From contig OY775910.1 in assembly GCA_963675245.1 (NCBI GenBank), forward strand, positions 128,001 to 192,000: 64,000 nucleotides of DNA. The letters run 5' to 3'. The notes under the pieces were generated by a model, which saw only the letters and a program-made list of their open reading frames with translations, had not been told where the DNA came from and did no database searches. Numbering within the stretch: position 1 is the stretch's first letter; every line of letters begins with the position of its first letter. Below, piece by piece: positions 8,483-26,133 of the stretch. Source of the DNA: Acholeplasmataceae bacterium (lineage in GTDB: Bacteria > Bacillota_I > Bacilli_A > Acholeplasmatales > Acholeplasmataceae). The translations under genes were made by a program, and so were the position numbers.

Positions 8483-8668
8483 TCATCGTTGCTCTTTCTC
8501 AGATATTTCATTGAATTGTTCAACTATTTTTTTCACATAGTTATCATTCAATTTCTGCTGCTTTTTGATGAAAGCATTAAATCGAGCAATGATGAATAAG
8601 TAATCGAGGACTAAGACGATTAAAATTGCAATAAGTATGATTCGTATTTCGTCAGAAGTTAATGTCAT
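8483..8668 (-). CDS. Small single-TM protein
   Basis: 61 aa, N-terminal TM, overlaps ATPase end, GGTGGTG RBS. Confidence 0.6.
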   Translation of the reverse strand: MTLTSDEIRIILIAILIVLVLDYLFIIARFNAFIKKQQKLNDNYVKKIVEQFNEISEKEQR

Positions 8669-9971
8669 CTACACCACCACCCATCATGTCTTCATCTTTG
8701 AAGTAGCCGGGATTAAAATACCAATTGATTTCTGATGACTTTGTCTGTGTAGCTGCAAGCAATTCATTTTGGATAATTCTGTAGAAATGAGTATCATATG
8801 TTCCAAAACAATACATAGTAGGTATGTGAAAGATTAGTTTGTCATAATAGATTGAGTCTCTTTTTTTGACATCCTCTTCTGATGCGTAGTTCCAAATTTC
8901 ATATTTGTTAAATCCAATAGATATAAGGAACCATTTGATGTGCAATAATTTATTAAGGATTTTTCTTTCAACATTTACAGTTTCAAAATAATGTTTCGTG
9001 TAATCTTCATAGGTTGTTTCTTTTGAAATCGTGTTTAATATTTTTTTGAGGAGGTAAGGAATGAAAAGTCTAAATAATTTGTATACACTAAATGAGAATG
9101 CAATAAATAAATTGATTAATTCAAATGTGAAATTGTAATTGCCTACTACTTTTATTGGTTTTGGTAACCATAAATTTGATTGTGTTAAAGATCTAAATTT
9201 CTTGATTTCATCTCTAACATCTTGCTTGGTTGTAATCATCCGGTTTCGTTCCTGGTGTATTTGACCAAACTTTCTACGATAATCTTTATCTCCAGCCTCT
9301 TCTTTTACATCTTCATAACGTTTATTTGCACCTATTTCATCAGACGCTTCATCAATGAGTTCGATCATGTAGTCATATATCGAATAATCTTTCAGAGCGT
9401 ATGCATCATGAATTTTTTGTTGCTCGATTTTATAATTGAAATTAAATGAAAATGTTACATGTGAATAAAAGTTTGTTTTGGAGTGAACATAGTTTTTTCT
9501 GAAGTTTAAAACCCAATATGCAAAGATATAATCTTGAAATTGTTCTTTAGATTTTTTTGATGTAATAAAATTTAATATGAGTGATTGGTTTATTTTTTGG
9601 TTTTTGATTTCTTTTAATGTTTTTTCATAGATGTATTGAAATTCTATAGTTTCATTTTTTTTGAAGTATTCATCAAGAAGTTTATTGATAATTGAAAAAT
9701 CTAATTTGTTATAAATTATCATAATTTCTGAAAGTAATAATTTTAATTTTTCTTCTATTTCAATTTGGTAGATATGACTTAACCCAGATTGAAAGCTTGT
9801 TTTGCCTGTTCTAATCGCTCCATTAATGGAGATTAGAAAACCAAGTAAAGAAGCTTTAATTTTGGATGCTTCATATTTATGATTAAGATATCCCCGATGT
9901 ATTGTAATTGAAACGAGAGGTACTATTATTATTGAGTCAATGATTAGTAAAAGGATAATTATGCTACTCAC
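8652..9971 (-). CDS. Membrane-anchored P-loop ATPase, Zot/pI-like morphogenesis protein
   Basis: N-terminal TM, Walker A GAIRTGKT, Walker B IELIDEA; GGAGG RBS. Confidence 0.7.
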   Translation of the reverse strand: MSSIIILLLIIDSIIIVPLVSITIHRGYLNHKYEASKIKASLLGFLISINGAIRTGKTSFQSGLSHIYQIEIEEKLKLLLSEIMIIYNKLDFSIINKLLDEYFKKNETIEFQYIYEKTLKEIKNQKINQSLILNFITSKKSKEQFQDYIFAYWVLNFRKNYVHSKTNFYSHVTFSFNFNYKIEQQKIHDAYALKDYSIYDYMIELIDEASDEIGANKRYEDVKEEAGDKDYRRKFGQIHQERNRMITTKQDVRDEIKKFRSLTQSNLWLPKPIKVVGNYNFTFELINLFIAFSFSVYKLFRLFIPYLLKKILNTISKETTYEDYTKHYFETVNVERKILNKLLHIKWFLISIGFNKYEIWNYASEEDVKKRDSIYYDKLIFHIPTMYCFGTYDTHFYRIIQNELLAATQTKSSEINWYFNPGYFKDEDMMGGGVDDINF

Positions 9972-10026
9972 TTAGTACCTCCGCTTCATTCATTCATACT
10001 ATGGGGGGGACACATGAATGATTTTT

Positions 10027-10554
10027 TTAAAATTCGATATCTTCTGAATCTACTTCCTTAGAAATTGTATCTGGTCTATGTTCCCACTTGATTTTAAGCA
10101 ATTTCTTTTCTTCTAGATTCTCTAATAAACGTTGTTGATCGTAACTTAAGAAGTGTGTAATATATAACCCTTTTTTGAAAATTATTTCTATAGATTTATA
10201 TTCACCTTCCATGTTCGAGTAGGACCCAGTTACAAACCGAACTGGAACATTTCTATTCCATTCAGTAAGATCCCTACCTTTTTTGTCTTCAAGCTCAAGT
10301 CCTACTTCCAAAATAATTAGATTGAATAATTCGTTTGAAATAAAATCTTTCGGACCACCAGCTCTAAGATTTAATTGTCTTAAGAACTTGTTATGGAGGT
10401 TAAGATAGATAGATGCCATCTCTCTGCCATTACGATAAACCTTTGTAAATTTGACCGGATACTTTTCAAGTTTTGATACAATTGGTGCTGTTAAATCACT
10501 GAGTTTTACAAATTCTGGTACTTTTTTGGTTTCTTTTGTCTCTGTTGTTGCCAT
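10027..10554 (-). CDS. Hypothetical protein, first gene of provirus operon (possibly ssDNA-binding)
   Basis: AAAGGAG RBS, basic body with acidic tail DSEDIEF; function inferred from position only. Confidence 0.6.
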   Translation of the reverse strand: MATTETKETKKVPEFVKLSDLTAPIVSKLEKYPVKFTKVYRNGREMASIYLNLHNKFLRQLNLRAGGPKDFISNELFNLIILEVGLELEDKKGRDLTEWNRNVPVRFVTGSYSNMEGEYKSIEIIFKKGLYITHFLSYDQQRLLENLEEKKLLKIKWEHRPDTISKEVDSEDIEF

Positions 10555-10714
10555 TTTTATTTCTCCTTTTTGTTTTTTGTTGTATACTTAATTCGGAAGC
10601 ATCCTTCTCGGCTTTTGAGCCAATAAGAGTTTTGTACTCATAGGATTGCTTCTTTTTTTGACTTGTCACTACTAAAGATATATAATCAAACTGTATTGAT
10701 GAAAGGATGATTTT

Positions 10715-10897
10715 ATGCCAAAAGATAAACCTATTTATATTGATCCTATACATGTGATTGATGGATGCCCTGAATTAAAACCAACAAACTACACTCATGT
10801 TTCCATATCAGATTCTATGCATATCAGAGATGGTGAAGGTAGTGTAGTAGAACTATCCGAATTTGAAGTAGTCAGTGGTGAATTAGAAGATAAATAG
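10715..10897 (+). CDS. Small acidic hypothetical protein
   Basis: GAAAGGA RBS before ATG; divergent from the main operon. Confidence 0.4.
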   Translation: MPKDKPIYIDPIHVIDGCPELKPTNYTHVSISDSMHIRDGEGSVVELSEFEVVSGELEDK

Positions 10898-11186: not shown

Positions 11187-11233
11187 GACTCTTAATCAGT
11201 GGGTCTACGGTTCGATCCCGTAAGGGGGTACCA
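11187..11233 (+). repeat. att repeat 1: 3' half of tRNA-Lys(CTT)
   Basis: GACTCTTAATCAGTGGGTCTACGGTTCGATCCCGTAAGGGGGTACCA: anticodon loop CTT, T-arm TACGG-TTCGATC-CCGTA, CCA; no 5' half upstream. Confidence 0.92.
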
Positions 11234-11305
11234 TATTACAATAAGACGAATCTTGAGCAAAGCATAACACCCAAGATATGCTCCGTGACATTTCATCACA
11301 CATCT

Positions 11306-11334
11306 ATGATAAAACAATAAATTTGCTTTGTCAA
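11306..11334 (-). promoter_or_regulatory. Leftward sigma-70 promoter facing att1
   Basis: Minus strand TTGACA-17-TATCAT; same hexamers and spacing in cassettes 2 and 3. Confidence 0.75.
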
Positions 11335-11354
11335 TAAGAAAGGAGCATTTTAAA

Positions 11355-11567
11355 ATGCACAAGTTAAAAAAGATTCGTACTGATAAGGGTTTATCACAAA
11401 CCCAGGTTGCTAAGATTCTAGGTGTTGATAGAAGCTCAATATCTAACTATGAGAGAGGGACAAGGAAACTTGATCAAGATCAAATAGTTGCATTAGTCAA
11501 GGCTTTGAATACAACAGCTGATTACTTCCTAGGACTGTCTGAGACCGAAAAGAAAGAGCAACATTAA
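11355..11567 (+). CDS. XRE-family HTH repressor, copy 1
   Basis: LKKIR..KGLSQTQVAKILGVDRSSISNYERG; AAAGGAG RBS before ATG 11355. Confidence 0.92.
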   Translation: MHKLKKIRTDKGLSQTQVAKILGVDRSSISNYERGTRKLDQDQIVALVKALNTTADYFLGLSETEKKEQH

Positions 11568-11618
11568 ATTGCTCTTTTTTTATTAAATTGATTTATATAA
11601 TCTAAAATTTTGTTTGTC

Positions 11619-12170
11619 TTATACGATTTCTTCAAAATATTCTTCATTTGTTTTAGTATCCGAGACAGCATTGAAAATAAAAGTAAATACTGAATCCTCA
11701 TCAAATTCATTTTCAATACCCTCTAGTGAAGCTGATAAAATATAATCAAAAAATAATTCTATGGATTCTTCTTTTAATTTATATCCAAATTGTTTCATTG
11801 TTAATATTGCACTAATATAATTAATAATAACCTCATTATTAAAGCAGTTATATTTGCGTACTTTTTCAAATACAGTTAGTTTATTATTTTGAAATACATC
11901 AATAATTTGTTCTGGTGATAAACATTTATTCATGTAAAATTCTAAAATGTCTACTAACTCTTTATCAGCTAAAACTTTAGATTTAATAGTTTTTATACCA
12001 GTTATTATTTCATCAGTTGTTTCATTATATTTTTCATTATGATGCCAATAATAATTTAGTATAAATTCCATATATGCAAAACATCCTTCTGAATTTTCCG
12101 ATATAAATTTATTATAATCTAAAGATAATTTAAATCTACGTGCTCTAAATTGGTTAAGTTCGTATAACAT
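11619..12170 (-). CDS. Hypothetical protein (cassette 1 cargo)
   Basis: 183-aa ORF with AGGGG RBS; no motif recognised. Confidence 0.6.
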   Translation of the reverse strand: MLYELNQFRARRFKLSLDYNKFISENSEGCFAYMEFILNYYWHHNEKYNETTDEIITGIKTIKSKVLADKELVDILEFYMNKCLSPEQIIDVFQNNKLTVFEKVRKYNCFNNEVIINYISAILTMKQFGYKLKEESIELFFDYILSASLEGIENEFDEDSVFTFIFNAVSDTKTNEEYFEEIV

Positions 12171-12199
12171 ATTCTTTGTTCCCCTATTATTATTCTTTT

Positions 12200-12496
12200 T
12201 TATTTTCTTATAATGTTTTTTATTTTATCTTTGTAAACCATAAGATCTGGATACTTCTCATTTGTATATTTATATAAACCATTTATTATCAAATCAATAC
12301 TAATTGATCTTAAGCTACTCTTTAAATAATCTAAATCATGATGATCTTCAGAAAGATATTCCAGCATCATTTTAAATAAATTTATAAAAGTCTCTGCAAT
12401 TGGATCAGCTATTCCCTTGCCTTGTTTTAAAAAATAATAATGTGCTGTATTACTATTAAAAGAATTCAGTAATTCTAATGCATTAGTTCTAGACAT
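12200..12496 (-). CDS. Hypothetical protein (cassette 1 cargo)
   Basis: 98-aa ORF, AAAGGA upstream. Confidence 0.5.
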   Translation of the reverse strand: MSRTNALELLNSFNSNTAHYYFLKQGKGIADPIAETFINLFKMMLEYLSEDHHDLDYLKSSLRSISIDLIINGLYKYTNEKYPDLMVYKDKIKNIIRK

Positions 12497-12630
12497 TTAA
12501 TATTTTTATTCCTTTCGTTATTTTATCAAAGATAGATTCTTACAATTTGTGTTCACTTTATTGATTTATATAAATGGTTATACGCTTAATCATCAAGATT
12601 CATCATCAAATTCATTAATTTCATAAGCTA

Positions 12631-13452
12631 TTAATATTTATCTCTTTTCCCTTTGTTGCATCTCTCACACAAAGTTTGAAGATTGTCATCTGTTGACTTT
12701 CCACCTTTTGATACAGGCTTAATATGGTCAACTTCCAAACGAACTCCAGCGGCAGCTGTCGCCCCACAAATGCAACACCTGAAACCATCTCTTTTCATTA
12801 TCTCGTAACGTTTATCATCTGAAAGAATAGCGCGTTGTTGTTGTATAAATGTCATTTTTCCTTCTTTTTCCAACGCCACTCGATAACATTCTAAAATATC
12901 ACTAAACTCGTATCTTTCATTTCTATCATAGTCACCATACTGCGATGTTGCCATTAAATGCAATATAACACTTGGAAATCGTGGGTCATAAGTTTTTTTG
13001 CTAAGCAACTCTTCTTCATACTTTTTAAGTTCTTTAAATCTATTTTCGGTTGTCGATCCAAAATTTTTGGCAAACCAATTTCTATTATCATGAGGTGCAG
13101 TTGAGATATCCTTATAAAGTCTCTTTACCTCAAAAACCTTTAAAACTTTCTTTTTATATTCATTAAATATCATAAAAATATCAATGTATTTATTAACTAA
13201 TGATTTGTAAATTATCATCTCTCCAAATATTTTCCCAGATAAATATGCTTTAAAGTCAAACGAACTACCAAAAATGAATGAACCACCGAAATATGATTTC
13301 CCATATTTTGCTTTACTTGTGCGTTTTTCGTATTTTATCGGTTCTACTTTTATAGCATCAAAATTATAGTTGTTGTATTTTTTGTTAATCGTCTCAATTT
13401 CCAGCCACATTATATTATTTCTTATGCTTGTTTTTGCATCTTTAAATTGCAT
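12631..13452 (-). CDS. HNH endonuclease domain protein
   Basis: C-terminal CCICG...LEVDHIKPVSKGG...NLQTLCERCN. Confidence 0.88.
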   Translation of the reverse strand: MQFKDAKTSIRNNIMWLEIETINKKYNNYNFDAIKVEPIKYEKRTSKAKYGKSYFGGSFIFGSSFDFKAYLSGKIFGEMIIYKSLVNKYIDIFMIFNEYKKKVLKVFEVKRLYKDISTAPHDNRNWFAKNFGSTTENRFKELKKYEEELLSKKTYDPRFPSVILHLMATSQYGDYDRNERYEFSDILECYRVALEKEGKMTFIQQQRAILSDDKRYEIMKRDGFRCCICGATAAAGVRLEVDHIKPVSKGGKSTDDNLQTLCERCNKGKRDKY

Positions 13453-13725
13453 ATTGTCTCCATTTGAACATATAAATTTTCATATGTATTTCTTCAATAA
13501 GATTTTGAAAATGGTACATTACTTATTAATAGTATACTATTTTTATGGATTAATTTATAATGTTAATTTGTCTATCAAAATATTTTAACACTCACTAATT
13601 ATACATCTTACTAATAACCTTTTGCTTTATCAAAGGACTAAAATATGAAATATAAAGTAAAGACTAATAATTAGTTTTTTGTATAACTATTCTATCAATG
13701 TTGTAAAAATGAAATATGGAAAAGT

Positions 13726-14682
13726 TTATTCTTTTACATCAGTAAATGGTGGGTTAAACAATCTCATTTCTGATGTTGGACCATCATTTGAAATCTCTAA
13801 TTTTTCATTTAAATGACCATGTAATATTTCAGAAGCAATTTCTCTTATCTTTTCGAAGGGTTCCCCAAGAACATCATAATAGTTATCAAAAATTTTAATT
13901 AAGTCATCAATTATGTTCGTTTCAAAGTAAATATGTTGAAGATATTGAATATCAGAAGAAAAATAATCGTTATCCATCCATGAATAACCATGTAATAATA
14001 ACTCTCTTATTTTTTTATGCATTTCAATATCTATGTTCCACGAAAAACCTCGGCCATAAATAGTTTTACTAATCATTGTTTTTTCAGCATATGTTATATG
14101 AAATGAATATCCTGAATCAATAATTATTTTTGGAAACATGTGAAATACATTACCACTATATGTCTTTAAATCATAATAAATTGAAATATTAGGTCCTCTT
14201 TGTCGTGGATCAAATAAATATCCAATGGTTTTTTTAGTGTAATCAAATTCGGAATTGAGTTCTTTATAATCTAGATACAGTTTGTAAGGTTTATTTAGAG
14301 CGACTATTTCTGTAGACAAGCAACTAAACAATTCTTTTAAATAACTCGTATAAGTGTCATTACTAATGTAATATTTTCCTATAGATTTTGAATAATCATT
14401 AAATCTTTGTATTTTATTTTCCCACAAGATCATTTCTGTCTTTTTTAAGTTTTCTAATTTTTCAAAATCATATTCATTTGGAATGAAAATCTCCAATTCA
14501 TCATCTGGCTTATTTTGATTTTGCTCCCAACAATCATCACATAGCCAATATCTATGTCTTTTAAATTCTCTCATGATAGACTGATGCCTTTGAGAAAAAG
14601 TGTTTGATGAAACCAAAACATCTGCATTGTATCGTCTACTACAAATCTTACAAATTCTTGTATCGGGTAAATACATTGGCAT
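13726..14682 (-). CDS. Hypothetical protein with N-terminal CxxC...CxxC
   Basis: CKIC and CDDC; starts 1 nt after the sigma factor stop. Confidence 0.65.
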   Translation of the reverse strand: MPMYLPDTRICKICSRRYNADVLVSSNTFSQRHQSIMREFKRHRYWLCDDCWEQNQNKPDDELEIFIPNEYDFEKLENLKKTEMILWENKIQRFNDYSKSIGKYYISNDTYTSYLKELFSCLSTEIVALNKPYKLYLDYKELNSEFDYTKKTIGYLFDPRQRGPNISIYYDLKTYSGNVFHMFPKIIIDSGYSFHITYAEKTMISKTIYGRGFSWNIDIEMHKKIRELLLHGYSWMDNDYFSSDIQYLQHIYFETNIIDDLIKIFDNYYDVLGEPFEKIREIASEILHGHLNEKLEISNDGPTSEMRLFNPPFTDVKE

Positions 14683-14683
14683 C

Positions 14684-15586
14684 TCATATCACCTTTTTTA
14701 ATTTTTTGATTGCTCTACTTTGAATCTGTCTAACTCGTTCTCTAGATATTCCAAATAAGTCTCCAACTTCTCCTAGAGTTTTTTCATCATAATCTATGCC
14801 AAATCTCATTTTAATAATTGCTTGTTCTCGTCTATCTAAAACTTGTAAGATATCATCCACAAATTCATCAAGCTCTTTTTCATTATTGTATTCTTCTGGA
14901 TTCTTATTTTTCTTGTCTTCTGTGAAATCTAGAAGTCTGGAATTATCTTCTCCTACACTTTGATCTAAAGATATCGCATCATCACTACACAAATAAACTA
15001 TCTTTAATGACGGTATTGATATATTTGTTAATTTTGAAACTGTTTCAATATCGGGTTCTACACCATTTTCTTTTATATATTTAATAGTCGCTTTTTTAAT
15101 AATAGCTAATGAATCATATATATGTACTGGAATCCTAATTGTTCTAGCTGTATTAGAAATTGACCTTGAAATGAATTGTCTAATCCACCAAGTTGCATAT
15201 GTTGAAAGTCTGTATCCTTTTTCAACTTGAAATCTGTCTATAGCTTTCATCAAACCCATATTTCCTTCTTGAATAAGATCCATCATGGGAACATTCGTAT
15301 ATCTATATTTCTTAGCTATATTCACTACCAATCTTAAATTTGAAACAACCAATTTATCTCTGGCTTCTTTTCCAAGTTCTATAATTTTTTCATCTTTAGA
15401 TTTACGAGCTGCCAATACTTTACCAGCAAGTTCAATTTCTTCTTCCTTAGTCAGTAATCGAATTTTACCAATATCCTTTAAATATACACTTAAAGAATCA
15501 TTTAAATTAACTAGATCTTTTGAATTTATTAATTCTGTATCCGATCCTTCTAATTCATGATTGTTCAATACATTTTTCGATTTCAA
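14684..15586 (-). CDS. RpoD-like sigma-70 factor lacking region 1.1
   Basis: YLKDIGKIRLLTKEEE (1.2), DLIQEGNMGLMKA and STYATWWIRQ (2), ISRERVRQI (4.2); TTG start after GGGAG. Confidence 0.92.
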   Translation of the reverse strand: MKSKNVLNNHELEGSDTELINSKDLVNLNDSLSVYLKDIGKIRLLTKEEEIELAGKVLAARKSKDEKIIELGKEARDKLVVSNLRLVVNIAKKYRYTNVPMMDLIQEGNMGLMKAIDRFQVEKGYRLSTYATWWIRQFISRSISNTARTIRIPVHIYDSLAIIKKATIKYIKENGVEPDIETVSKLTNISIPSLKIVYLCSDDAISLDQSVGEDNSRLLDFTEDKKNKNPEEYNNEKELDEFVDDILQVLDRREQAIIKMRFGIDYDEKTLGEVGDLFGISRERVRQIQSRAIKKLKKVI

Positions 15587-15815
15587 ATAGTTTCTCCCAA
15601 TCTATTTTTATTTTTGTATCTCTTAACATACGAATTATACATAGCTAAAAAACTTTGTCAAGGGGTGTATTTTAAAAAATTTTTTGATAATACATAAATT
15701 AATTCTCCCCCAGAAATGCATTGATGTCTATATATTTATTATACACTGCACAAGTATATAAAAAAAGCACTTAAATAAGTGCAATAATTAACTAATTAAT
15801 TTGTAAAACTTCCTA

Positions 15816-15861
15816 ACTCTTAATCAGTGGGTCTACGGTTCGATCCCGTAAGGGGGTACCA
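15816..15861 (+). repeat. att repeat 2 (tRNA-Lys 3' half)
   Basis: 46 bp identical to repeat 1 from ACTCTT to CCA. Confidence 0.92.
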
Positions 15862-15933
15862 AAATACAATAACGAGACTTAAGCAAAGCATTACTCCGCG
15901 AAGAGTTGCTCCGTGACATTTCATCACACATCT

Positions 15934-15962
15934 ATGATAAAACAAAACATTTGCTTTGTCAA
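15934..15962 (-). promoter_or_regulatory. Leftward promoter facing att2
   Basis: Minus strand TTGACA-17-TATCAT. Confidence 0.75.
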
Positions 15963-15982
15963 TAAGAAAGGAGCATTTTAAA

Positions 15983-16195
15983 ATGCACAAGCTAAAAAAG
16001 ATTCGTACTGATAAGGGGTTATCACAAACCCAGGTTGCTAAAATTCTAGGTGTTGATAGAAGCTCAATATCTAACTATGAGAGAGGGACAAGGAAACTTG
16101 ACCAAGATCAAATAGTTGCATTAGTCAAAGCTTTAAATACAACAGCAGATTACTTCCTAGGATTGTCAGAAACCAATGAAAAAGGACAGAAATAA
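15983..16195 (+). CDS. XRE-family HTH repressor, copy 2
   Basis: First 64 aa identical to copy 1. Confidence 0.92.
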   Translation: MHKLKKIRTDKGLSQTQVAKILGVDRSSISNYERGTRKLDQDQIVALVKALNTTADYFLGLSETNEKGQK

Positions 16196-16271
16196 AAATT
16201 TTGTCCTTTTTTAACTGAACGTTTTAACAAAACAATTTCTAAGCTGCTCTTTTTTAGGTAATATTGAAAAA

Positions 16272-16433
16272 TTATTTATTTTCTAACTTTAAATAACCAG
16301 CTAAAAACATTATAACAAATATAACTAACAATACCCTTGCACCAACTTCAGTTCTATAAATTGCTACAGTCATTACAATTATTCCTATGATACCAATTAT
16401 TGTAAGAGCGATATTTATTTTTTTTGAATTCAT
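16272..16433 (-). CDS. 53-aa two-TM protein
   Basis: Below ORF-track cutoff; my translation MNSKKINIALTIIGIIGIIVMTVAIYRTEVGARVLLVIFVIMFLAGYLKLENK; AGAGGTG RBS. Confidence 0.65.
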   Translation of the reverse strand: MNSKKINIALTIIGIIGIIVMTVAIYRTEVGARVLLVIFVIMFLAGYLKLENK

Positions 16434-16442
16434 AATCACCTC

Positions 16443-17477
16443 TTAATAATCTGATAAATCATTGAAACCAATTGTATAACCTATTGAATTGAATTCTGGT
16501 ACTGGTTCTAAACTAATTCCGCTATAAGTTACATATGGATAAATCGGTGTCAATGTAATTCTTCCTGGATCTATTTTCCATCCGGAAAACTGGTGAACAT
16601 AAGTTCCTAAAATATCAATTGAATTAATTTCACTAGTTGATGGAATAAGTACTGTTTCAAACTCAAACTGCAATTCTGATACAATTTGTCCTTGTGTAAA
16701 CATTAAACCGAAATCAGAATATGTTATAAAAAATGATTCAGGAACTTCGTAAGGTACCATAATTGTTCGTTCGTTTGGAGTGTACTCATAAATATCATCA
16801 TCAGAACCAACAACAACTTCTTCTCTATCTTCATCAATTGATACAAACATTTCTCCATTTACTACAGTGTAATTAAACAGATGATATTGCATTTTCGAAT
16901 ATATTTTAGCGTGTTCTTCAGAACCAGCAGGGTAGTTTCCATTAATATCCGGTAAAACTTCTTCATTATTATTATAGTAGACAAACTTTGGCTTAAATAA
17001 TTCAGTATATGCTATATTTAGCAGGTCAATTAAACCATCGTCTTGCACTGAATCCCATTCAACTTTCATCCAATAATATAGTTCACCATATTGACCATAT
17101 GTTGGGAAATAAGTTGCTTGAATACTAATTGAAAAAAAACTGTTATTATTATATCCATCCTTTGATATCATCGGTGGAACATCTCCACCACCACCTGAAT
17201 CTCCACCATCATCAAATTCAAATCCAGCCCCTAAAACACTATAAGAAATAATATCATTTAATTCTTTCTCTTTATCGTCCTTATATTTCTTTAATTTCTT
17301 TTGATATTCTTCCTTTGAAAGATTGTGAATTGTGCTTACAGTCTTTCCATCGACTTCATTATTAATTTTTTGATAGTATTCTTTAACTTCATAGGTATAA
17401 CTTTCAATCGCACCAAATGAATTAATAGATAATCCCATAAAAATAAACACTAATAGAAATAATATAATCTTTTTCAT
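16443..17477 (-). CDS. Secreted hypothetical protein
   Basis: MKKIILFLL signal peptide after GGGAGGGG; Gly-rich linker DDGGDSGGGGD. Confidence 0.7.
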   Translation of the reverse strand: MKKIILFLLVFIFMGLSINSFGAIESYTYEVKEYYQKINNEVDGKTVSTIHNLSKEEYQKKLKKYKDDKEKELNDIISYSVLGAGFEFDDGGDSGGGGDVPPMISKDGYNNNSFFSISIQATYFPTYGQYGELYYWMKVEWDSVQDDGLIDLLNIAYTELFKPKFVYYNNNEEVLPDINGNYPAGSEEHAKIYSKMQYHLFNYTVVNGEMFVSIDEDREEVVVGSDDDIYEYTPNERTIMVPYEVPESFFITYSDFGLMFTQGQIVSELQFEFETVLIPSTSEINSIDILGTYVHQFSGWKIDPGRITLTPIYPYVTYSGISLEPVPEFNSIGYTIGFNDLSDY

Positions 17478-17543
17478 TGCCCCTCCCAAGTTTTTTTTCA
17501 TTTTATCATATATTAACAGATATATCAATTGAAGTCTTTTTTT

Positions 17544-18761
17544 CTATATCTTACTAATAGGATATGCAATAACATCTTTTGTTAGATACATTGGATTTTC
17601 TATCATCGATAATAGATATTGTCCACCAATCACTATATCACCTTTATTCTTGATTGTATCAAAATTCTTTATCATATGTAATGATGGATGTGAAGTTTTC
17701 TTCACTTCAACTAAATATAACTTGCCATTTTGCTCTAGTACTATATCCACTTCATTTTGATCCCTATCTCTATAGAACATGAGATTTGGTTCAATACCTT
17801 TATTACGGTATGATTTTATAATTTCAGAAATCGCATATGTTTGGAGCATGAATCCTGACATTGCGCCACTTTCTAATACTTCTGAAGTTTGCCACTTCAA
17901 CAAGAATGAAGCAAGTCCAGTGTCCATAAAATATAATGTCGGTGTTTTTACTGCTCTAGATAATAAATTGTTTGAATAAGGTTTAGCAATATATACAATT
18001 GAAGATGCTTCTAATACGCTTAACCAGCTCATTGCTGTTTTTAAATCGATGCCGACTTCACTTGCAATTGAAGCATAATTTAGTAATTGTCCAGTTCTAG
18101 CTGCAACTGCAACCATAAATACAGAAAAACGATTCAAGTCTCTAATATTGATGATTTCTCTTACGTCTCTTTCAATATATGTAGACACATATGAACGATA
18201 AAACAGTTGCCAATCCATCATTTTATTTTCATATAATTCTGGATATGATCCTCGATGAATGATTGACCATATATTACTATTAAACGACTTTCTTTGATTG
18301 CTGATATATGCTATATCTGGTACAAAAACATCTTGAAAAGATTCTGTATTTATTTCTCTAAGTGATAAACCGGAAAGTGATAAAATACCGACTCGACCAG
18401 CGAGTGATTCAGATACATGATGCATCAAAGAAAATGTTTGCGAACCAGTTAATATGATTTGTCCTTTTTTCTCACTTTGATCAGCTAATAATTTAAGATA
18501 AGGAAATATCTCTTTAACTTTTTGTACTTCATCTATGATGATAGGCAATGTATGTGTTTGAAAAAATAATGCTGGATCACGTTTTATTTGCTCTTGAATT
18601 AGCACATCATCTAGAGATACATATTGATGAGTGTTACCAAATATTTTTTTAATGATTGTTGTTTTACCAACTTGTCTTTGTCCAGTCACCAATATGATTT
18701 TGAACATTTCTGACATTTTAAGCAAAATATCTTCAGCATGTCGTTTTATATAGTTCATCAT
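17544..18761 (-). CDS. AAA_14/DUF4143-type ATPase
   Basis: GQRQVGKT, IIIDEVQ, LTGSQ, LYFMDTG, EVD...VEVK nuclease-like tail. Confidence 0.88.
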   Translation of the reverse strand: MMNYIKRHAEDILLKMSEMFKIILVTGQRQVGKTTIIKKIFGNTHQYVSLDDVLIQEQIKRDPALFFQTHTLPIIIDEVQKVKEIFPYLKLLADQSEKKGQIILTGSQTFSLMHHVSESLAGRVGILSLSGLSLREINTESFQDVFVPDIAYISNQRKSFNSNIWSIIHRGSYPELYENKMMDWQLFYRSYVSTYIERDVREIINIRDLNRFSVFMVAVAARTGQLLNYASIASEVGIDLKTAMSWLSVLEASSIVYIAKPYSNNLLSRAVKTPTLYFMDTGLASFLLKWQTSEVLESGAMSGFMLQTYAISEIIKSYRNKGIEPNLMFYRDRDQNEVDIVLEQNGKLYLVEVKKTSHPSLHMIKNFDTIKNKGDIVIGGQYLLSMIENPMYLTKDVIAYPISKI

Positions 18762-18904
18762 TAACCTCCGTCTAATATGGAATTCAATTCCATTTTAGCC
18801 GTTACATTATGTTTTGTCAATTGTTTTCATTATTAATACCTATACAAACGGAGTTTTTCGTTATGTTTTACTGGAGTGATTTGGTATTATTATCAAACCT
18901 TGTA

Positions 18905-18950
18905 ACTCTTAATCAGTGGGTCTACGGTTCGATCCCGTAAGGGGGTACCA
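18905..18950 (+). repeat. att repeat 3 (tRNA-Lys 3' half)
   Basis: 46 bp identical to repeats 1 and 2. Confidence 0.92.
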
Positions 18951-19022
18951 AATTACAATTAAATGGACTTAAGCAAAGCATACTCCGCAAGAACTGCTCC
19001 GCGACGATATGTCACTACATCT

Positions 19023-19051
19023 ATGATAAAACAATAAAATTGCTTTGTCAA
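19023..19051 (-). promoter_or_regulatory. Leftward promoter facing att3
   Basis: Minus strand TTGACA-17-TATCAT. Confidence 0.75.
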
Positions 19052-19070
19052 TAAGAAAGGAGCATTTAAT

Positions 19071-19283
19071 ATGCACAAACTTAAGAAAATCCGTACTGAT
19101 AAGGGTTTATCACAAACCCAGGTTGCTAAGATTCTAGGTGTTGATAGAAGCTCAATATCTAACTATGAGAGAGGGACAAGGAAACTTGATCAAGATCAAA
19201 TAGTTGCATTAGTTAAAGCTTTAAATACAACAGCAGATTACTTCCTAGGACTATCAGAAACTAATGAAAAAGGACAAAAATGA
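19071..19283 (+). CDS. XRE-family HTH repressor, copy 3
   Basis: Protein identical to copy 2. Confidence 0.92.
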   Translation: MHKLKKIRTDKGLSQTQVAKILGVDRSSISNYERGTRKLDQDQIVALVKALNTTADYFLGLSETNEKGQK

Positions 19284-19383
19284 AAATTTGTCCTTTTTTC
19301 TTGATTGTCATTTATAATCAAATAATACCAATTTAAATTAAAATGTTAAAAGTTGAATCACATTAAAAACTAAACACTAATAT

Positions 19384-20175
19384 TTAACTTATTGAATAAT
19401 CTTGATCAAGTGGATCAATCGTATAAAAAACCAATTGATTTCTCAAAATTTCAAAACGAGGATTCAGTATACGATTAGTCGAATCCCAAGAAACTTGAAC
19501 AGACACTGAGCCATATGGATTGTTCTCAAATGAAGTCGAAATTTCTACTAATTGGCTTTGTGTATACAGCTCCGAAATATGTATTCTGAATGATGATATA
19601 TTCGTTAAAAATTGACCGCTATCAAAACTTCGAGAAATTAAAAAATCTGAATCTCCAAACAACTCAATTTCATTTGTTTGAACATCTCTAAACGTCTGGC
19701 TTATAATTGTAAATAGAGAATCAAACATCAATATATCCCCTGTCTGATTAAGATCATTTTTTACATAGTTTACAATATCAATTAGATTATCTTCATTCAA
19801 TGTAGAACTGTTTGTAGTTATATTATCTTCATATTTATTAAGTTGCAAAGTTTGTCTATCAAATATGTATTGATATTTTTGATTGTTGTAATAGTCATAT
19901 AATGTCATATCATCAGTCATCAAATATGCAAAAGATCTTTCTTCTTTAACTAAGATATAGTGTTCATTATTCGTTGTCATCGTATAATATACCCAAGAAG
20001 AATTCGACGATAAATAAACACTATAGATGTCTCCATCAATTTCCACAATATTCGAAATATTTTCGACCGTTAAATTTTGAAAAAAATCTATAAATTCCTT
20101 TTTATCAGATTGGTTGCATCCAAACGATGTTAAAAGTAAAAAGATTAATATCATCGATAATAAGATTTTTTTCAT
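19384..20175 (-). CDS. Lipoprotein
   Basis: Signal peptide II LTSFGC; AGGAGG RBS. Confidence 0.8.
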   Translation of the reverse strand: MKKILLSMILIFLLLTSFGCNQSDKKEFIDFFQNLTVENISNIVEIDGDIYSVYLSSNSSWVYYTMTTNNEHYILVKEERSFAYLMTDDMTLYDYYNNQKYQYIFDRQTLQLNKYEDNITTNSSTLNEDNLIDIVNYVKNDLNQTGDILMFDSLFTIISQTFRDVQTNEIELFGDSDFLISRSFDSGQFLTNISSFRIHISELYTQSQLVEISTSFENNPYGSVSVQVSWDSTNRILNPRFEILRNQLVFYTIDPLDQDYSIS

Positions 20176-20201
20176 TTAATAACCTCCTTTTTGAATTGTG
20201 T

Positions 20202-21338
20202 TTATACTACTAGATTTTCAAATGGCGGTTTCCAAATTTCCCACCACTTAGCTCCTGTTGTTTTTTGGATGTTATATATACCATGTCTATATTGTGATTG
20301 TACAAAATAAAAAGATGGTGTCCCGGATTTTTTACTACCTATAACCCCTAAATTGTGATAATAATTTTCTGTCCAATGAGAAATAATATCATAATTTGTT
20401 TTGAATATCCACCAAGCATCTGATTGAGCGCTACCAATAATCATTGCATAATGTGCGGTTTCGACGACATCTAAACTATAATATAATCCAATTGCAGGAC
20501 CATTGTAATTTGGGCCAAAATAACCTTCAGAATTGACAAAATAGTCATCCGATAAATATCCATGAATTCCAGACACTATTTCACCTGGCCATATACCATA
20601 AAAAGTACTTACTAAATAGTCACGTCCAGCTGTAGTCCAATTCATTAATGAACGCATCGTATCCCGTTCAGTATTACTATTCATACTTTTTGTTAATCCA
20701 CTTTCGCCGGAAAACTGAAAAGTATACAAGATGTTCACTGCTGCTTGTGCACCACAATCCATGTATGCACCTTGAGTTCTAGTATAAATTTGATAACTAC
20801 CATAACTACCATTATCCATTCTTAAATCATCTGCAATTGAATATGTTACTTTAAAATTAGTTAGTGCATTCGTATTTGTGCTAGTAAGCTGAATATAAAT
20901 ATTATCATAAAACCAACTTTGTCCATCTATTTGATCTAAATAAGGTGCACCGAATGAATTAGGAATAAATCTTTCATTGTCTTTAATATAATAATGATTC
21001 CCTATCAAGTAATTTGTATCTCTAGCTACATAAAAAGGTAAATTCCCCTCTGTTTTTATTTCATAAATATTTAAGTCTAGTCCTACAGTTAAGTATCCCT
21101 GGTCAAACTGAATCAGAAACGCCTTCAATTCATCATGTTCATCGTATAAGTCATAATAATCAACATATGTATTTACATCCCATACTTGACCAAACTCTTT
21201 ATAATACTCCTCCCTTAAAATTGGAATATTCTCATTAATAAAATTTACAAGTTCAGCTTCGTTATCAATATTCACTATACCACTAAAACCGATTGTTGTG
21301 AATAGAGATAAAATAACAATTAAAAATTTGTTCAACAT
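20202..21338 (-). CDS. Secreted papain-fold (C39/C10-like) cysteine peptidase
   Basis: Signal peptide MLNKFLIV after AGGAG; Q..DCGAQA and AHYAMIIG motifs. Confidence 0.6.
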   Translation of the reverse strand: MLNKFLIVILSLFTTIGFSGIVNIDNEAELVNFINENIPILREEYYKEFGQVWDVNTYVDYYDLYDEHDELKAFLIQFDQGYLTVGLDLNIYEIKTEGNLPFYVARDTNYLIGNHYYIKDNERFIPNSFGAPYLDQIDGQSWFYDNIYIQLTSTNTNALTNFKVTYSIADDLRMDNGSYGSYQIYTRTQGAYMDCGAQAAVNILYTFQFSGESGLTKSMNSNTERDTMRSLMNWTTAGRDYLVSTFYGIWPGEIVSGIHGYLSDDYFVNSEGYFGPNYNGPAIGLYYSLDVVETAHYAMIIGSAQSDAWWIFKTNYDIISHWTENYYHNLGVIGSKKSGTPSFYFVQSQYRHGIYNIQKTTGAKWWEIWKPPFENLVV

Positions 21339-21498
21339 TTTTCTTCTCCTTTTTCTATTATTCAAATACAAAAAAGCTTACAACGTAAGCACCCCCAAGA
21401 TGTCATGTATCTCTATAATGTAATTATAACATCAGTATGTAGTTATAAAACACAACATATATGTCAATAATTTAATGCAATTTAAACAAATGAAATAC

Positions 21499-21547
21499 CT
21501 GACTCTTAATCAGTGGGTCTACGGTTCGATCCCGTAAGGGGGTACCA
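21499..21547 (+). repeat. att repeat 4 (tRNA-Lys 3' half)
   Basis: CTGACTCTTAATCAG...GGTACCA, followed by hairpin AAGACTTCA/TGAAGTTTT and a T run. Confidence 0.92.
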
Positions 21548-21657
21548 TTTGATAATTAAAAGACTTCATTTTGAAGTTTTTTTTGTTTCACAAATCTCTT
21601 AGTATACCTATTTAGATCAATTCACTTGCTTTGCTAATAAGAAAGGAGCATTTTAAA

Positions 21658-21865
21658 ATGCACAGGCTAAAGAAAATTCGTAGTGATAAGGGTTTATCAC
21701 AAACCCAGGTAGCTAAGATTCTAGGTGTAGATCGCTTTCATTTCCAACTATGAACGATGAAATAGAAAGCTTAATTAAGATCAAATCGTTGAATTCGTGA
21801 AAGCTTTGAACACATCTACTGATTACTTCTTGGGATTGTTGTAAACCGAAGAAAAAGGACAATAT
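21658..21865 (+). pseudogene. Degenerate XRE repressor, copy 4
   Basis: Same RBS, MHRLKKIRSDKGLSQTQVAKILGVDR, then frameshift and stop codons. Confidence 0.85.
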
Positions 21866-21954
21866 TTCTCATTTTTGTCCTTTTTCTTAATCATGCATTT
21901 CTCTAATGTGTCCTTTTTTCTTGATTTTTTATAACATGAATAATATTAATTTAT

Positions 21955-22380
21955 TTACTCGTTATCATAGAACTTAACATTCCAGATTCTGAAGTTAATC
22001 GTATTAGAAGAACTGTCTTCTTTTATTGCATCAAATGATTCATTAAAGACAATTCTAATGGTTGAGTTTTCACTTAGATTTGTCGTAAGAATTGTTTCAA
22101 TTTCATTAATATAAACTTGATATGAAGCATCATCTTTAATATTATTTAAACAAACAAAATCTATTGTTGAATATGTGCTTTGTATGTAATCCATGTCATG
22201 AATGTTCAAAGTGAACAAATAAACGACAGAATCCGTATTATGCATAGCATTTTCAAATGTTAAATCGTAATTGCCTTGTTCATATGTAGATCCTAATCCA
22301 TAGACTTCCATCGGTGTTTCGCATGCTGTAAATAACAGCGACACTACTAGTATAATTGATATTATAGCTAATTTTCTCAT
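21955..22380 (-). CDS. Lipoprotein
   Basis: Lipobox LFTAC; AAAGGTG RBS. Confidence 0.8.
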   Translation of the reverse strand: MRKLAIISIILVVSLLFTACETPMEVYGLGSTYEQGNYDLTFENAMHNTDSVVYLFTLNIHDMDYIQSTYSTIDFVCLNNIKDDASYQVYINEIETILTTNLSENSTIRIVFNESFDAIKEDSSSNTINFRIWNVKFYDNE

Positions 22381-22394
22381 ATTCTATCACCTTT

Positions 22395-23621
22395 CTAATA
22401 ATACATGAAAGCAGCAAAACCAATATATACATTCAAATCCATATATCTCATATAAGTAACCCATCCATCAGACAGTCTTATTAAATAAACATAATCGTAT
22501 TCAGTCCACCATAATACTTGTCTAGCTTTTCTGTAAGTTTTGTATCCAAATACTGCCATTGTATGAGCACCCTATGTATTTGTTGAAGTACTCCACATAA
22601 GTGGCTTATCATCATCGAGATATTGTTTATAGTTAAATGCTCCCCATAAAACATCCTCTCTGAAATTTATATCATAACCATACTCATCCATCGTCATTTC
22701 AATAATTCCAGAAGATTGACCAATTGTGAAAGATTCTACTCTGCCATATTGATCGTAAGTATTTGTTCTTGCACTGATATATAATTCAGGAAAATCAGTT
22801 AAATCCGAATTAAGTTGATACTCTGAACTTTCTATCATTTTCTCATAGTGTACATCCCATTCATGATAAATAGGATTATATGTTACACGGTCTGCATAAT
22901 CTGGTAGATTTGAATATGCTGATTTAGTTGAAAAATAGTTCATTACGTTAAAAGGTGCAACTAAACCACAATTACCTTCTGAATATCGTAGATTATCTTC
23001 ATAACGCCAGTATACACTTAAATCAAACATATCATGACTAGTTGAATAGCTTAGATAATGATATTGATATAATGAGTAACCAGATCCATATCTATCAGCA
23101 ACGTATGTAGCTGTAGATACAATTCCACCTGCGCCATCAAGTTCTTGTCCCTCATAAGGATCACTTAAAAGTGTGTTATCAAAATCATTTTCATTGCTGT
23201 TTATTGGTACTAGTTGACCTTCAATCAGAAAGTGATAACCAGACAAAGGTAGATAGTAAATTTGTACATCAAATTCAGTTAGATTCTCTAATGGTGAAGG
23301 TCCTGTGATTTCATAATCATAAATCGCTGCCTCATCCCCAATTAGTAAGTAGCCATTGTCATCATTAAAATCCAACAAAACACCTTCATTTTTTTCATTC
23401 ATATCATCAATAACAATTTGATAGCTTTTATCTACTGAAGTAAGCGAATCATTGAAGCCTAATTCAACAAACAACTCTTTAACAGTATCTATATGAGATT
23501 CAATATATTCTGCTGTCTCATACGATGAATCAACATTGCATGGAATTTTTGAATCTTGAGAAGCAATTCCACCCCAAAGCGAAAAACTAGCTAAAATCGC
23601 AATTAGAATTTTGCTATAAAT
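22395..23621 (-). pseudogene. Secreted cysteine peptidase interrupted by an in-frame TAG
   Basis: GNCGLVA motif; TAG at 22572-22574, frame continues GAHTMAVFGY...SDGW...YY to stop at 22395; ATT where ATG is expected after AAAGGGGG. Confidence 0.7.
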
Positions 23622-23761
23622 AAACGCCCCCTTTATTATTTTTTTATTATGATTACCCCATCGTGTTTTCGATTTAATATTACTTCTTTTAATTTCAAAT
23701 GTCAAATACACTTTATAATTCCTAAATTGTTAATATAACGTAAATAAAATTGAGAAACTAT

Positions 23762-23809
23762 TGACTCTTAATCAGTGGGTCTATGGTTCGATCCCGTAAG
23801 GGAGTACCA
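23762..23809 (+). repeat. att repeat 5 (degenerate tRNA-Lys 3' half)
   Basis: Two substitutions (CTATGG, GGAGT) versus the other copies; no XRE follows. Confidence 0.88.
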
Positions 23810-24139
23810 TTTATAATAATTAACGACTTCAATTGAAATCTTTTATTTTAAGTTTATTGATGTTCCGTCATGATGTGTTAGTAAAGATTTCTGAACGTAT
23901 CACAAATTGATCATGTCTAAAGGATAACTCATATTTTCTATTCCAATACCTATATGAATTTCTATTATGATATCTTCATCCAACTGATATGGTTCTGTTT
24001 AAAAGATCGGAGGTACTTGTTTATTTATGCAGGATATTAAGAATGACGATACCCCTCCAATTAGTAATCAATTATCGAATACTTCATATTTATTGCCTCC
24101 ACATTTATTCCGTTTCAAAGTCATCGTAATAAAAAGTGA

Positions 24140-24706
24140 CTATTTATTGACTAATCTGATGGATGTGTCTTGAATTGCATAGTTAATAATCTGATAAGTT
24201 GAAAATCCAAGTCGAATATCATCATCTATATTTGTATATACACCAAAACCTAAATCAATCATATCCGAGTTTTGATTAAAAAGGATTTCTGGCAAAATAA
24301 TTTCAATCATATACTCATAAAAAACGATATATGAATCATCCTTATTATATACACGTTCATATTCAAATGTATCTCTCTCATAATCATCAACATTAAATGT
24401 GTACAATTCAATATCTTCTGTATTGTTGCCATTATTTGCAAAAATAACTATTGATGATCGCTCATCAATTGAACTTCTAATGGCTTGATTTGGAATTCCT
24501 ATATAAAATGAAACAGTAATATCACCTATACCAAATTCTGAATCTTGAAATCGATAAGCGCAATATACTTCTTGCATTGGTTCATCTTCACCTGTATCAA
24601 TATATAAAAAGCCTTTTGCTCTTACATCTGTTTGCTCATTGTTACTACATGCCGTTAGAAATAAAACAAATATAGAAACAAAGATAATTCGTTTAATCTT
24701 TAACAT
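24140..24706 (-). CDS. Lipoprotein
   Basis: Lipobox FLTAC; AAAGGAG RBS. Confidence 0.8.
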   Translation of the reverse strand: MLKIKRIIFVSIFVLFLTACSNNEQTDVRAKGFLYIDTGEDEPMQEVYCAYRFQDSEFGIGDITVSFYIGIPNQAIRSSIDERSSIVIFANNGNNTEDIELYTFNVDDYERDTFEYERVYNKDDSYIVFYEYMIEIILPEILFNQNSDMIDLGFGVYTNIDDDIRLGFSTYQIINYAIQDTSIRLVNK

Positions 24707-24756
24707 ATGACTCCTTTGTTTGCATAAAATGCATGTTAATTTTTATTTACATTTCA

Positions 24757-25113
24757 TCAACGATATTTCTGTGCGTTGATACCGATTTCAATGAGGTCAT
24801 CAGCAGTATATAGATGTAATAGATTTCCGGCTTGCAGGTCATAATATTTATCTTTGTAGTAAACAAGGTAGTTATTAATATGATAAGCACCTATTGCATA
24901 CATTTCATTATTATCATCAAAAATAATAACTGCAATTGATGGATAGATGATATCTTCGTTGATATCTGTTCTTTTTAAAATCGTAAAGTTAGATCCTTCA
25001 TAAAACAAACTAAATAGTTCCGGTTCAGGATTTTCTAGTGGTTTCACACTTTGGCAAGCATACAACGTAACAGATACTAAAGTAATCATTAATACATATA
25101 ATATTGACTTCAT
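24757..25113 (-). CDS. Lipoprotein
   Basis: MKSIL start after AAGGAG; lipobox LYAC. Confidence 0.75.
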   Translation of the reverse strand: MKSILYVLMITLVSVTLYACQSVKPLENPEPELFSLFYEGSNFTILKRTDINEDIIYPSIAVIIFDDNNEMYAIGAYHINNYLVYYKDKYYDLQAGNLLHLYTADDLIEIGINAQKYR

Positions 25114-25506
25114 GATATCTCTCCTTATATAAATCACTACATTGTAGATTCATCAATTATTTCTACTGTTCCTACTAATTGATTTTCTAACAAAAACAAT
25201 AGTTTATCATCATGTCTCTTGGCTGACTGAATCATCAATTGATTGGATGTCTTTATATCTCAAGATAGATAGAAAATTTTCATAACAATTGGAATCTGTA
25301 CGCTCTTTAGTATCATCACTACTGGGACATCCACACAAAATAACTACCAAAAAAAGCTGAAATAATGATCAATAAGACTAATTTTATTTGATGATGACTC
25401 ATATGATCAACCCCCAATCATAATGTGAATCATATGCTGCTTTATTTACACTTATTATATCACTAAAGTATGCAAAAAATAAAAGACCTTTAAAAGTCTT
25501 TCATTG

Positions 25507-26001: not shown

Positions 26002-26133
26002 GTTGTGCTTTCCCCTCCAATAATGATTATATTCATTATACATTGTGATACATGTCTTTTCAATACATACTGAACATGATATTTTTTAAAGCTGTCATTA
26101 TTGATATATACTTATATTAAGGGAGTGATAACG

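Follow-up and report, generated by a model that had tools for sequence, protein, structure and literature searches.

RESULTS AND DISCUSSION

A tandem array at tRNA-Lys beside a plasmavirus-like provirus

The window analyzed here, a stretch of 64,000 nucleotides (nt) from the 1.63-Mb, one-contig genome of an Acholeplasmataceae bacterium (G000:C1:128001-192000; assembly GCA_963675245.1, contig OY775910.1), contains a tandem array of four small units, u1 to u4. They are bounded by direct repeats of the 3' half of tRNA-Lys(CTT) and adjoined on the left by u0, a provirus related to the Acholeplasma plasmavirus L2. The array probably grew by accretion, that is, by successive site-specific integration of L2-like viruses, and the core-less units would be derivatives similar to cis-mobilizable elements (CIMEs) or to the remnants in tycheposon islands; we give this reading a probability of roughly 0.65.

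Five direct copies of the tRNA-Lys(CTT) 3' half, 45-47 bp long, were found in the window by a repeat search and a whole-genome pattern search, as had been claimed in an earlier interpretation made from the letters alone (the sequence-only reading). Over the 34 nt searched, the pattern CTCTTAATCAG...GGGGGTACCA matched perfectly at window positions 11189, 15817, 18906, and 21503 and with 1 mismatch at 23765 (2 across the whole attachment site, att, in alignment A1). The reversed-pattern control gave 0 matches in the whole genome. Copies 1 to 4 are identical to one another. Identity among the copies starts in the anticodon loop in alignment A1, the crossover position that had been proposed. ARAGORN called no tRNA within the window and placed the intact tRNA-Lys(ctt), the sixth copy, 6.1 kb upstream of it (genome 121853-121928; L007:9853-9928). 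After the intact gene come the same leader and XRE gene as in the units, an arrangement that the sequence-only reading had anticipated there. The homologous leader and XRE sequence extends over ~350 bp after the tRNA and after att copies 1 to 4 (74-92% nt identity); att copy 5 is followed by a hairpin resembling the native tRNA terminator of a relative. The att copies, as given by the repeat and pattern searches and the alignment, are the following:

11189-11233, plus strand: att copy 1, tRNA-Lys(CTT) 3' half; shared border of provirus u0 (right end) and u1 (left end)
15817-15861, plus strand: att copy 2
18906-18950, plus strand: att copy 3
21503-21547, plus strand: att copy 4
23765-23809, plus strand: att copy 5, outermost, 2 mismatches, followed by a host-type tRNA terminator

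Relationship of provirus u0 to plasmavirus L2

Provirus u0 spans 17.3 kb between the intact tRNA and att copy 1. Its leader and XRE gene are followed by open reading frames (ORFs) of 222 and 129 aa, GmrSD, a type II restriction enzyme, and a D12 methylase, and then by a 139-aa HEXXH ORF, the 290-aa integrase, proteins of 748, 231, and 502 aa, and Rep_trans with small ORFs, all on the minus strand. The cargo of ~6 kb comprises the type II restriction-modification genes and GmrSD. The part of u0 that lies within the window is listed below.

1-370, minus strand: 3' part of the 139-aa HEXXH (HELRH) ORF, whole ORF at genome 127951-128370; weak DUF3920 match
407-1279, minus strand: tyrosine integrase, 290 aa, short, Xer-like, L2 ORF5 type (PF00589, 2.1e-38)
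1516-5979, minus strand: 748-, 231-, and 502-aa proteins; the first resembles L2 ORF1, and the last has Listeria-Bacteroides (Flg_new) repeats
6507-10753, minus strand: remaining core with proteins of 85, 173, 387 (Rep_trans, 7280-8443, Pfam 8.5e-33), 61, 439, 175, and 85 aa

Judged from its motif and its position beside the integrase and XRE genes, the HEXXH ORF may be ImmA-like. The integrase matched Xer-type models best in NCBIfam, all under the cut-offs, and no family was found for the remaining-core proteins besides Rep_trans with Pfam, PHROGs, and NCBIfam.

The link to L2 was seen in three proteins. In a tblastn search of 50,697 phage records, the 748-aa protein matched the two L2 records only, with 26% identity to L2 ORF1 (E values of 2e-17 and 1.7e-22); an IMG/VR scan with the same protein gave no match. 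The u0 integrase shared 35% identity over 287 aa with L2 ORF5 (E = 9.5e-49), and the XREs of the locus were 47-54% identical to an unannotated XRE of L2 (47% for the u0 XRE). The neighbor of the array was thereby borne out as an L2-like provirus carrying the only nearby integrase, and the proposed viral derivation of the units was supported as well. The 748-, 231-, and 502-aa proteins have sizes and an order like those of ORF1, ORF14, and ORF13 of the L2 envelope region, and by this order and size the latter two resemble the L2 envelope counterparts.

The layout of L2 points in the same direction. Downstream of the L2 integrase lie a small reverse ORF, then the unannotated reverse XRE ORF, a promoter, and a tRNA-Val-like stretch. 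The promoter matches 12/12 consensus positions, occupies a position equivalent to that of a promoter-like site in u0 to u3 (see below), and is directed away from XRE. The adjoining stretch corresponds to tRNA-Val(gac) from the anticodon to the 3' end, 17/17 nt being identical to the copy in the present genome, and may be the true attP of L2. Rfam did not call this tRNA-like half, and a second att copy was not found in L2. In the L2 record (NC_001447.1, L015), the XRE ORF, promoter, and tRNA-Val(gac)-like half are located at about 5015-5440, and a "putative attP" is annotated elsewhere, at 5029-5053. Since L2 has the order att, leader, XRE, reverse slot, and integrase, the order of the units corresponds to the att-proximal end of a plasmavirus genome. 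Each unit would thus combine a viral immunity switch, made up of the XRE gene and an outward promoter, with the slot for accessory genes, and it lacks the core of ~11 kb.

L2-related prophages reside in tRNA genes (profile by the international virus taxonomy committee, ICTV, PMC12662186), and u0 is integrated in a tRNA gene with att adjoining its repressor/integrase end. In common with L2, u0 has the integrase, the ORF1-like protein, XRE, the one-strand gene layout, the integration in a tRNA gene, and the order att, switch, small reverse slot, integrase. It differs in its 17.3-kb size, with a 6-kb defense cargo and Rep_trans that are absent from L2; most u0 proteins are without a detectable L2 counterpart. 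As a complete provirus, u0 would belong to a budding virus.

Structure and cargo of the core-less units

The units measure 4628 bp (u1), 3089 bp (u2), 2597 bp (u3), and 2262 bp (u4) and hold three to six ORFs each, on both strands. In u1 to u3, att and leader are followed by a plus-strand XRE gene, a hairpin, and minus-strand cargo. The bidirectional hairpin closes each XRE gene, and the cargo block facing it differs between units. The claim that all units follow this order stood for u1 to u3 and needed correction for u4, in which the XRE gene is reduced by a frameshift to a 40-aa ORF and the leader starts with a host-type tRNA terminator. The features of the units are as follows:

11234-11567, plus strand: u1 leader and XRE gene (ATG at 11355, 70 aa; Pfam, alignment)
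11619-15586, minus strand: u1 cargo with proteins of 183, 98, 273 (HNH), 318, and 300 aa (sigma-70 family; domain searches)
15862-16195, plus strand: u2 leader and XRE (Pfam, alignment)
16272-18761, minus strand: u2 cargo with proteins of 55, 361, and 405 aa (DUF4143/AAA_14 ATPase, PADLOC candidate PDC-S01; Pfam, PADLOC)
18951-19283, plus strand: u3 leader and XRE (XRE 19071-19283; Pfam, alignment)
19384-21371, minus strand: u3 cargo with proteins of 263 and 389 aa (C39-like peptidase lead; Pfam, Atlas)
21548-21862, plus strand: u4 leader and frameshifted XRE (alignment)
21955-23711, minus strand: u4 cargo with proteins of 141, 54, and 379 aa (the last a C39-like lead; Pfam, Atlas)

Pfam detected no integrase or Rep domain in u1 to u4, and a six-frame PF00589 search of the whole genome gave 6 matches at E ≤ 1, all of them recombinase genes and none inside the units. 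The absence of an own integrase or Rep from every unit, noted in the sequence-only reading, was thus confirmed.

Similarity between units is restricted to the first ~400 bp, and the cargo blocks are unrelated in sequence. The content is mixed, with clear defense genes in u0, sigma-70-family and HNH genes in u1, a candidate-defense ATPase in u2, and C39-like leads in u3 and u4. The description of the cargo as variable needed one qualification: the att-proximal cargo genes of u3 (389 aa) and u4 (379 aa) are distant relatives (E = 2e-4). Both products have matches in the Atlas that serve only as leads to secreted, C39-like peptidases. Together with the first gene of a unit in genome G007 (see below), they may represent a recurrent plasmavirus accessory gene and not random cargo. 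The 141-aa protein of u4 has a lipoprotein-like N terminus, as judged by eye.

The sequence to the left of each att, said to be unrelated between copies, mostly is. The ends of the units show no relation to that of u0 and mostly none among themselves, the exception being u1 and u3, which have ~95 bp in common to the left of att copies 2 and 4, ending ~15 bp from att (z = 4.9; score reached by 0/200 shuffles). This common stretch, at window 15707-15802 and 21392-21483, may be left over from the right end of a virus or may act as a functional arm. The u1 copy contains a minus-strand hairpin with a T-run (15782-15767).

XRE switch and outward promoter-like sites

The leaders of u0 to u3 contain, at the same alignment position, a minus-strand promoter-like site, TTGACA-17-TATCAT, which agrees with 11/12 consensus positions. 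It is bordered by a GTGAC-N5-GTCAC-type palindrome (seen by eye in A1) and directed across att toward the left-hand sequence, which is the core in the circular genome and the tRNA or the left neighbor once integrated. In the units, the sites are located as follows:

11334 to 11306, minus strand: outward promoter-like site of u1
15962 to 15934, minus strand: outward promoter-like site of u2
19051 to 19023, minus strand: outward promoter-like site of u3

This promoter would be controlled by XRE. Since in the circular genome it would read over att into the core, integration would part it from the genes that it drives and so uncouple the core from the switch. A 31-nt inverted match to the leader in the 439-aa ORF of u0 was considered as an operator candidate and dropped, as it lies inside coding sequence.

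The XRE genes of u2 and u3 differ at 13 synonymous and 0 non-synonymous sites, and the synonymous divergence (dS) among u1 to u3 is 0.35-0.43, so that the copies are diverged and under purifying selection. Their divergence at synonymous sites, with att identical, argues for separate acquisitions, not for recent duplications.

Related loci in genomes and metagenomes

A total of 172 family genomes, G000 included, were surveyed. The tRNA-Lys half was present in 51 of them, with at least two copies on one contig in 6; in G132 and G141 the copies lay on separate contigs. The 6 genomes contained 10 intervals between two halves on one contig, 8 of which (u1 to u4 and those of G007, G120, G139, and G140) were 1.1-4.7 kb long and had no integrase. 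Core-less units at tRNA-Lys were thus found in four other species. The remaining two intervals were the complete u0 and a provirus with a split integrase in G003.

The G007 unit (4.4 kb) encodes XRE and proteins of 179, 450 (radical-SAM), and 510 aa, the G120 unit (4.7 kb) XRE and proteins of 55, 601, and 408 aa, and the G140 unit (3.3 kb) a PAS-GGDEF-HD protein; the G139 unit is 1.1 kb long. The first gene of the G007 unit (510 aa, L021:15398-16930) matched the 379-aa protein of u4 with E = 6.5e-7. L2-type integrases were detected in 25/172 genomes at E ≤ 1e-25, and none was found in G007 at this threshold.

The G003 interval of 12.8 kb contains XRE, defense-type cargo, an integrase in pieces of 107 and 170 aa, and three core genes, which run straight into truncated cargo of the G007 type (91-93% aa identity) with the same end junction. 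This arrangement marks it as a provirus in decay that a deletion has joined to an older unit lacking a core; its ancestor must have had the same architecture as the locus described here.

The distance from tRNA-Lys to a conserved GDSL gene was 0.9 kb in G001, where the site is nearly empty, 2.2 kb in G006, 7.4 kb in G007, and 34.7 kb in the present genome. In G006 (L065), the tRNA is followed by a decayed, divergent XRE-like ORF, with no second att. Metagenome contig L108 carries a homologue of the u3 cargo (83% nt identity), after which come a decayed att and an XRE pseudogene nearer to the u1-u3 type than to u4. These distances and L108 demonstrate that the content varies between species, one of the points that support the sequence-only reading. 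A profile search of genome contigs with the XRE alignment gave 80 loci, of which 78 were generic XREs of other taxa with ≤46% identity; the only close matches were L028 (the G120 locus) and L029. The leader pattern had no match in metagenome contigs or viral contigs.

Flanking region and further tRNA 3'-half arrays

To the right of the array lies a variable region without att that ends at the conserved GDSL gene (28583) and may consist of older decayed insertions:

23810-28582: proteins of 188, 126, and 178 aa, GNAT, and IS110 transposase

Transposase genes of the IS110 family (window 27157-28317) and the ISL3 family (29546-30817) lie on either side of the GDSL gene, and the syntenic locus of G001 has neither. 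From window 32094 to 64000 there is a long series of minus-strand genes encoding large proteins of up to 1023 aa; over the part compared, to about window 39600, it is syntenic with G001 and G007.

Further 3'-half arrays in the genome were observed for tRNA-Phe, tRNA-Arg(tct), and tRNA-Gln(ttg). At 772658-783300 (L027), at least seven further tRNA-Phe 3' halves start at the anticodon loop and bound units of 0.5-1.4 kb, most of them with a single gene, and one unit of 4.8 kb, with genes codirectional with the tRNA and no XRE. Two extra tRNA-Arg(tct) 3' halves at 311103-312724 (L113) bound units of ~0.7-0.9 kb with ORFs of 222 and 166 aa. The tRNA-Gln(ttg) element of 4.8 kb at 990419-995299 (L112), with XRE next to att, encodes a 293-aa L2-type integrase and a 290-aa replisome-organizer-like protein. 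Having no envelope-type genes, it is a reduced relative or a possible satellite. Two tyrosine recombinase genes are located side by side on the same strand at 1131872-1133382.

Origin of the core-less units

In the accretion reading, tRNA-Lys(CTT) would serve as an integration hot spot for viruses related to L2. The full viral genome would run from att through leader, plus-strand XRE, and bidirectional hairpin to minus-strand cargo, ImmA-like gene, integrase, and a core of ~10-11 kb, and each insertion at the tRNA would push the older ones outward. There is an age gradient along the array, the outermost unit presumably being the oldest, as read from the 2 mismatches of the outermost att and the broken XRE of the outermost unit, u4. 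The core-less units may have been retained for their repressor, and hence immunity, and for their cargo. With perfect att on both sides, they could still undergo excision, or be moved along in cis, through the resident integrase. An origin by CIME-like decay agrees with a switch homologous to those of u0 and L2 and with the decay intermediate in G003, yet u1 to u4 contain no core remnant.

This last point heads the observations that speak against accretion followed by core loss. Comparison of u1 to u4 with the u0 core by tblastx gave nothing at E ≤ 0.01, the genome-wide PF00589 search revealed no integrase fragment in them, and all four have an intact att at both sides. Four independent random deletions are unlikely to have left such clean units, for which scars like that of G003 would be expected. 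No att-like site was found at the cargo/core junction of u0; the junction search returned 8 weak att-like matches versus 3.5 expected by shuffling, none at the junction. Only 3 of the ~15 u0 proteins (integrase, ORF1-like protein, and XRE) have L2 homologues, and PHROGs gave no structural match among the u0 proteins. In addition, the tRNA-Phe and tRNA-Arg cassettes are not virus-like in look, which hints that a core may be dispensable for the arrival of a unit. The small sample contains eight clean units for each scarred one, a pattern that would fit a regular process yielding core-less units, helper-assisted spread as between CIMEs and integrative and conjugative elements (ICEs) in the part of PMC5704250 available, or strong selection for tidy outcomes.

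These points lead to a tentative and rather unlikely alternative, in which the core-less units form a mobile class of their own, i.e., integrase-less att-switch-cargo circles (satellites or defective plasmavirus genomes) that would come in without a core and be inserted singly in trans by a viral integrase, and the virus would feed an integron-like array. The clean borders and perfect att seen in all four units and also in G007 and G120, together with the lack of core and integrase fragments, are what it would predict. The ~95 bp common to the ends of u1 and u3 are in register with att, as the conserved arm of an element would be, and a short Xer-like integrase, judging by its length, may not need elaborate arm sites. 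The tRNA-Gln element combines the same XRE-att layout and an integrase with a lack of envelope-type genes, cassette arrays occur at tRNA-Phe and tRNA-Arg of the same genome, and plasmavirus virions contain one to three genomes (ICTV profile, PMC12662186). A hint only comes from the low-depth run X5 (run evidence here means assembled contigs of runs), in which one contig with a depth of 4.4 and 50 ambiguous bases links the end of u2 to its start, as in a circle or tandem copy. This joint may be an assembly path because it spans a 49-bp repeat, which is longer than typical short-read assembly words. Against such a class, no unit occurred with identical ends in two different contexts, and Pfam revealed no replication function in the units. 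The G007 unit, in a genome without an L2-type integrase at E ≤ 1e-25, would be a relic at least there; the end junction shared by the units of G003 and G007 is as compatible with inheritance as with transfer, and G003 and contig L108 show plain decay. A similarly doubtful extension is a modular cassette system of plasmavirus and host. L2-type integrases would cut and paste att-switch-cargo at the anticodon loop, alone or with the virus in capsid-less virions, and the host would accumulate repressors and accessory or defense operons, which would make the system a functional counterpart of integrons assembled from viral parts. Each unit's repressor-controlled outward promoter would then read into its left neighbor, and variants may exist at tRNA-Phe, tRNA-Arg, and tRNA-Gln.

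It is improbable that the 17.3-kb neighbor and its relatives are not viruses at all but integrative mobilizable or plasmid-like elements with a Rep of the rolling-circle/MobT type, the array being ordinary accretion of CIMEs and integrative mobilizable elements (IMEs). The MobT relaxase model was indeed the best NCBIfam match of the Rep_trans protein, but its 65.6 bits are far under the 600-bit cut-off. Satellite and small circular records are among the closest Rep matches in the phage collection, whereas the 748-aa protein has L2 as its only match in that collection, and the integrase, XRE, gene order, strand, and att position all mirror L2. The missing structural matches in u0 are explained by the plasmaviruses themselves, which share only the integrase with other viruses and have no capsid genes for PHROGs to recognize (PMC12662186). 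It is hardly credible that the array is an assembly artifact or that one unit was recently duplicated in local tandem. Short-read contigs end at each att/XRE repeat and so give no independent confirmation of the unit order. Nevertheless, the cargo blocks are unrelated, inter-unit similarity is limited to the start of each unit, and the XRE copies differ at many synonymous sites. Each unique block was recovered as its own contig in X2 and X4, probably from the source sample. Pieces of the u1 to u4 cargo occur at 90-95% identity in X1, a metagenome of another study, and the u3 cargo recurs on L108. Parts of u0 and the right flank are without cover in X1, and nothing is concluded from this gap. 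A contig with the tRNA 5' half abutting 21499, which might have indicated a deletion, is explained by the shared repeat and was not counted.

Comparison with known systems

The locus is not an integron, and the label "integron-like" holds as an analogy only. Like an integron, it has ordered gene units, a repeated recombination site, one tyrosine recombinase, and the newest unit apparently nearest the anchor. It differs in having no IntI-type integrase (the u0 integrase scored 53.3 bits against the integron-integrase model TIGR02249, with a cut-off of 265), no attC/attI, and no common Pc promoter. Integron cassettes are mostly promoterless, single-gene, and read from Pc, whereas the present units are multigene, 2.3-4.6 kb long, and equipped with their own regulator and promoter-like sites, with genes facing the anchor. 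The sites here are identical 45-bp tRNA-Lys 3' halves with variable left-hand sequence, in contrast to the imperfect inverted repeats of attC.

The statement that this is no described system did not survive comparison with CIME accretion and tycheposon islands, which match it as far as the available parts of the two sources describe them (PMC5704250; bioRxiv 10.1101/2020.12.28.424599). Tandem accretion with integrase-less, att-flanked CIMEs is reported there for ICEs and IMEs of streptococci, with tRNA-Lys among the sites (PMC5704250). Like those CIMEs, u1 to u4 are flanked by attL-/attR-type repeats of the tRNA 3' end, lack integration and transfer genes, and stand in tandem with an integrase-supplying relative. 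In contrast to the elements covered by that part of the study, the partner here is a plasmavirus-like provirus, known from its sequence, and not a conjugative element, and all units keep the same immunity switch. Tycheposons of Prochlorococcus are, in the portion of the preprint available, islands anchored at tRNA genes, where new arrivals displace older elements outward, and they likewise have partial tRNAs between elements, cargo modules, and degenerate remnants (bioRxiv 10.1101/2020.12.28.424599). By that description they are set apart by another recombinase lineage and host, and they keep integrase and replication modules and have fragmented remnants, whereas u1 to u4 are uniform and without either module.

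Phage satellites such as phage-inducible chromosomal islands (PICIs) and P4-like elements differ in carrying their own integrase, replication, and helper-exploitation genes, none of which was found in u1 to u4 with Pfam and PHROGs. In temperate phages and satellites, P2 and P4 among them, interchangeable defense genes occupy a fixed slot near att/int. Here, in contrast to such hot spots, the slot and repressor outlive the virus, and the remnants accumulate serially.

New in the present locus are the plasmavirus-like nature of the elements, the same switch and accessory slot in every remnant, and the same layout in L2 itself; in the literature searched, no paper on such arrays in Acholeplasma was found. 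Plasmaviruses are among the least studied bacterial viruses, with one isolate sequenced. The locus suggests that they carry an interchangeable accessory or defense slot between repressor and integrase, that their early promoter may be parted from its genes by integration, and that immunity-plus-cargo ends may outlast the virus and stack behind a tRNA gene. If the units are mobile, small-genome, wall-less bacteria would possess a virus-supplied gene collection; if they are not, the array would be a clear textbook example of an island growing through accretion and decay. Set beside integrons, CIMEs, and tycheposons, it is a tidy but not unprecedented example of integrating elements building gene islands.

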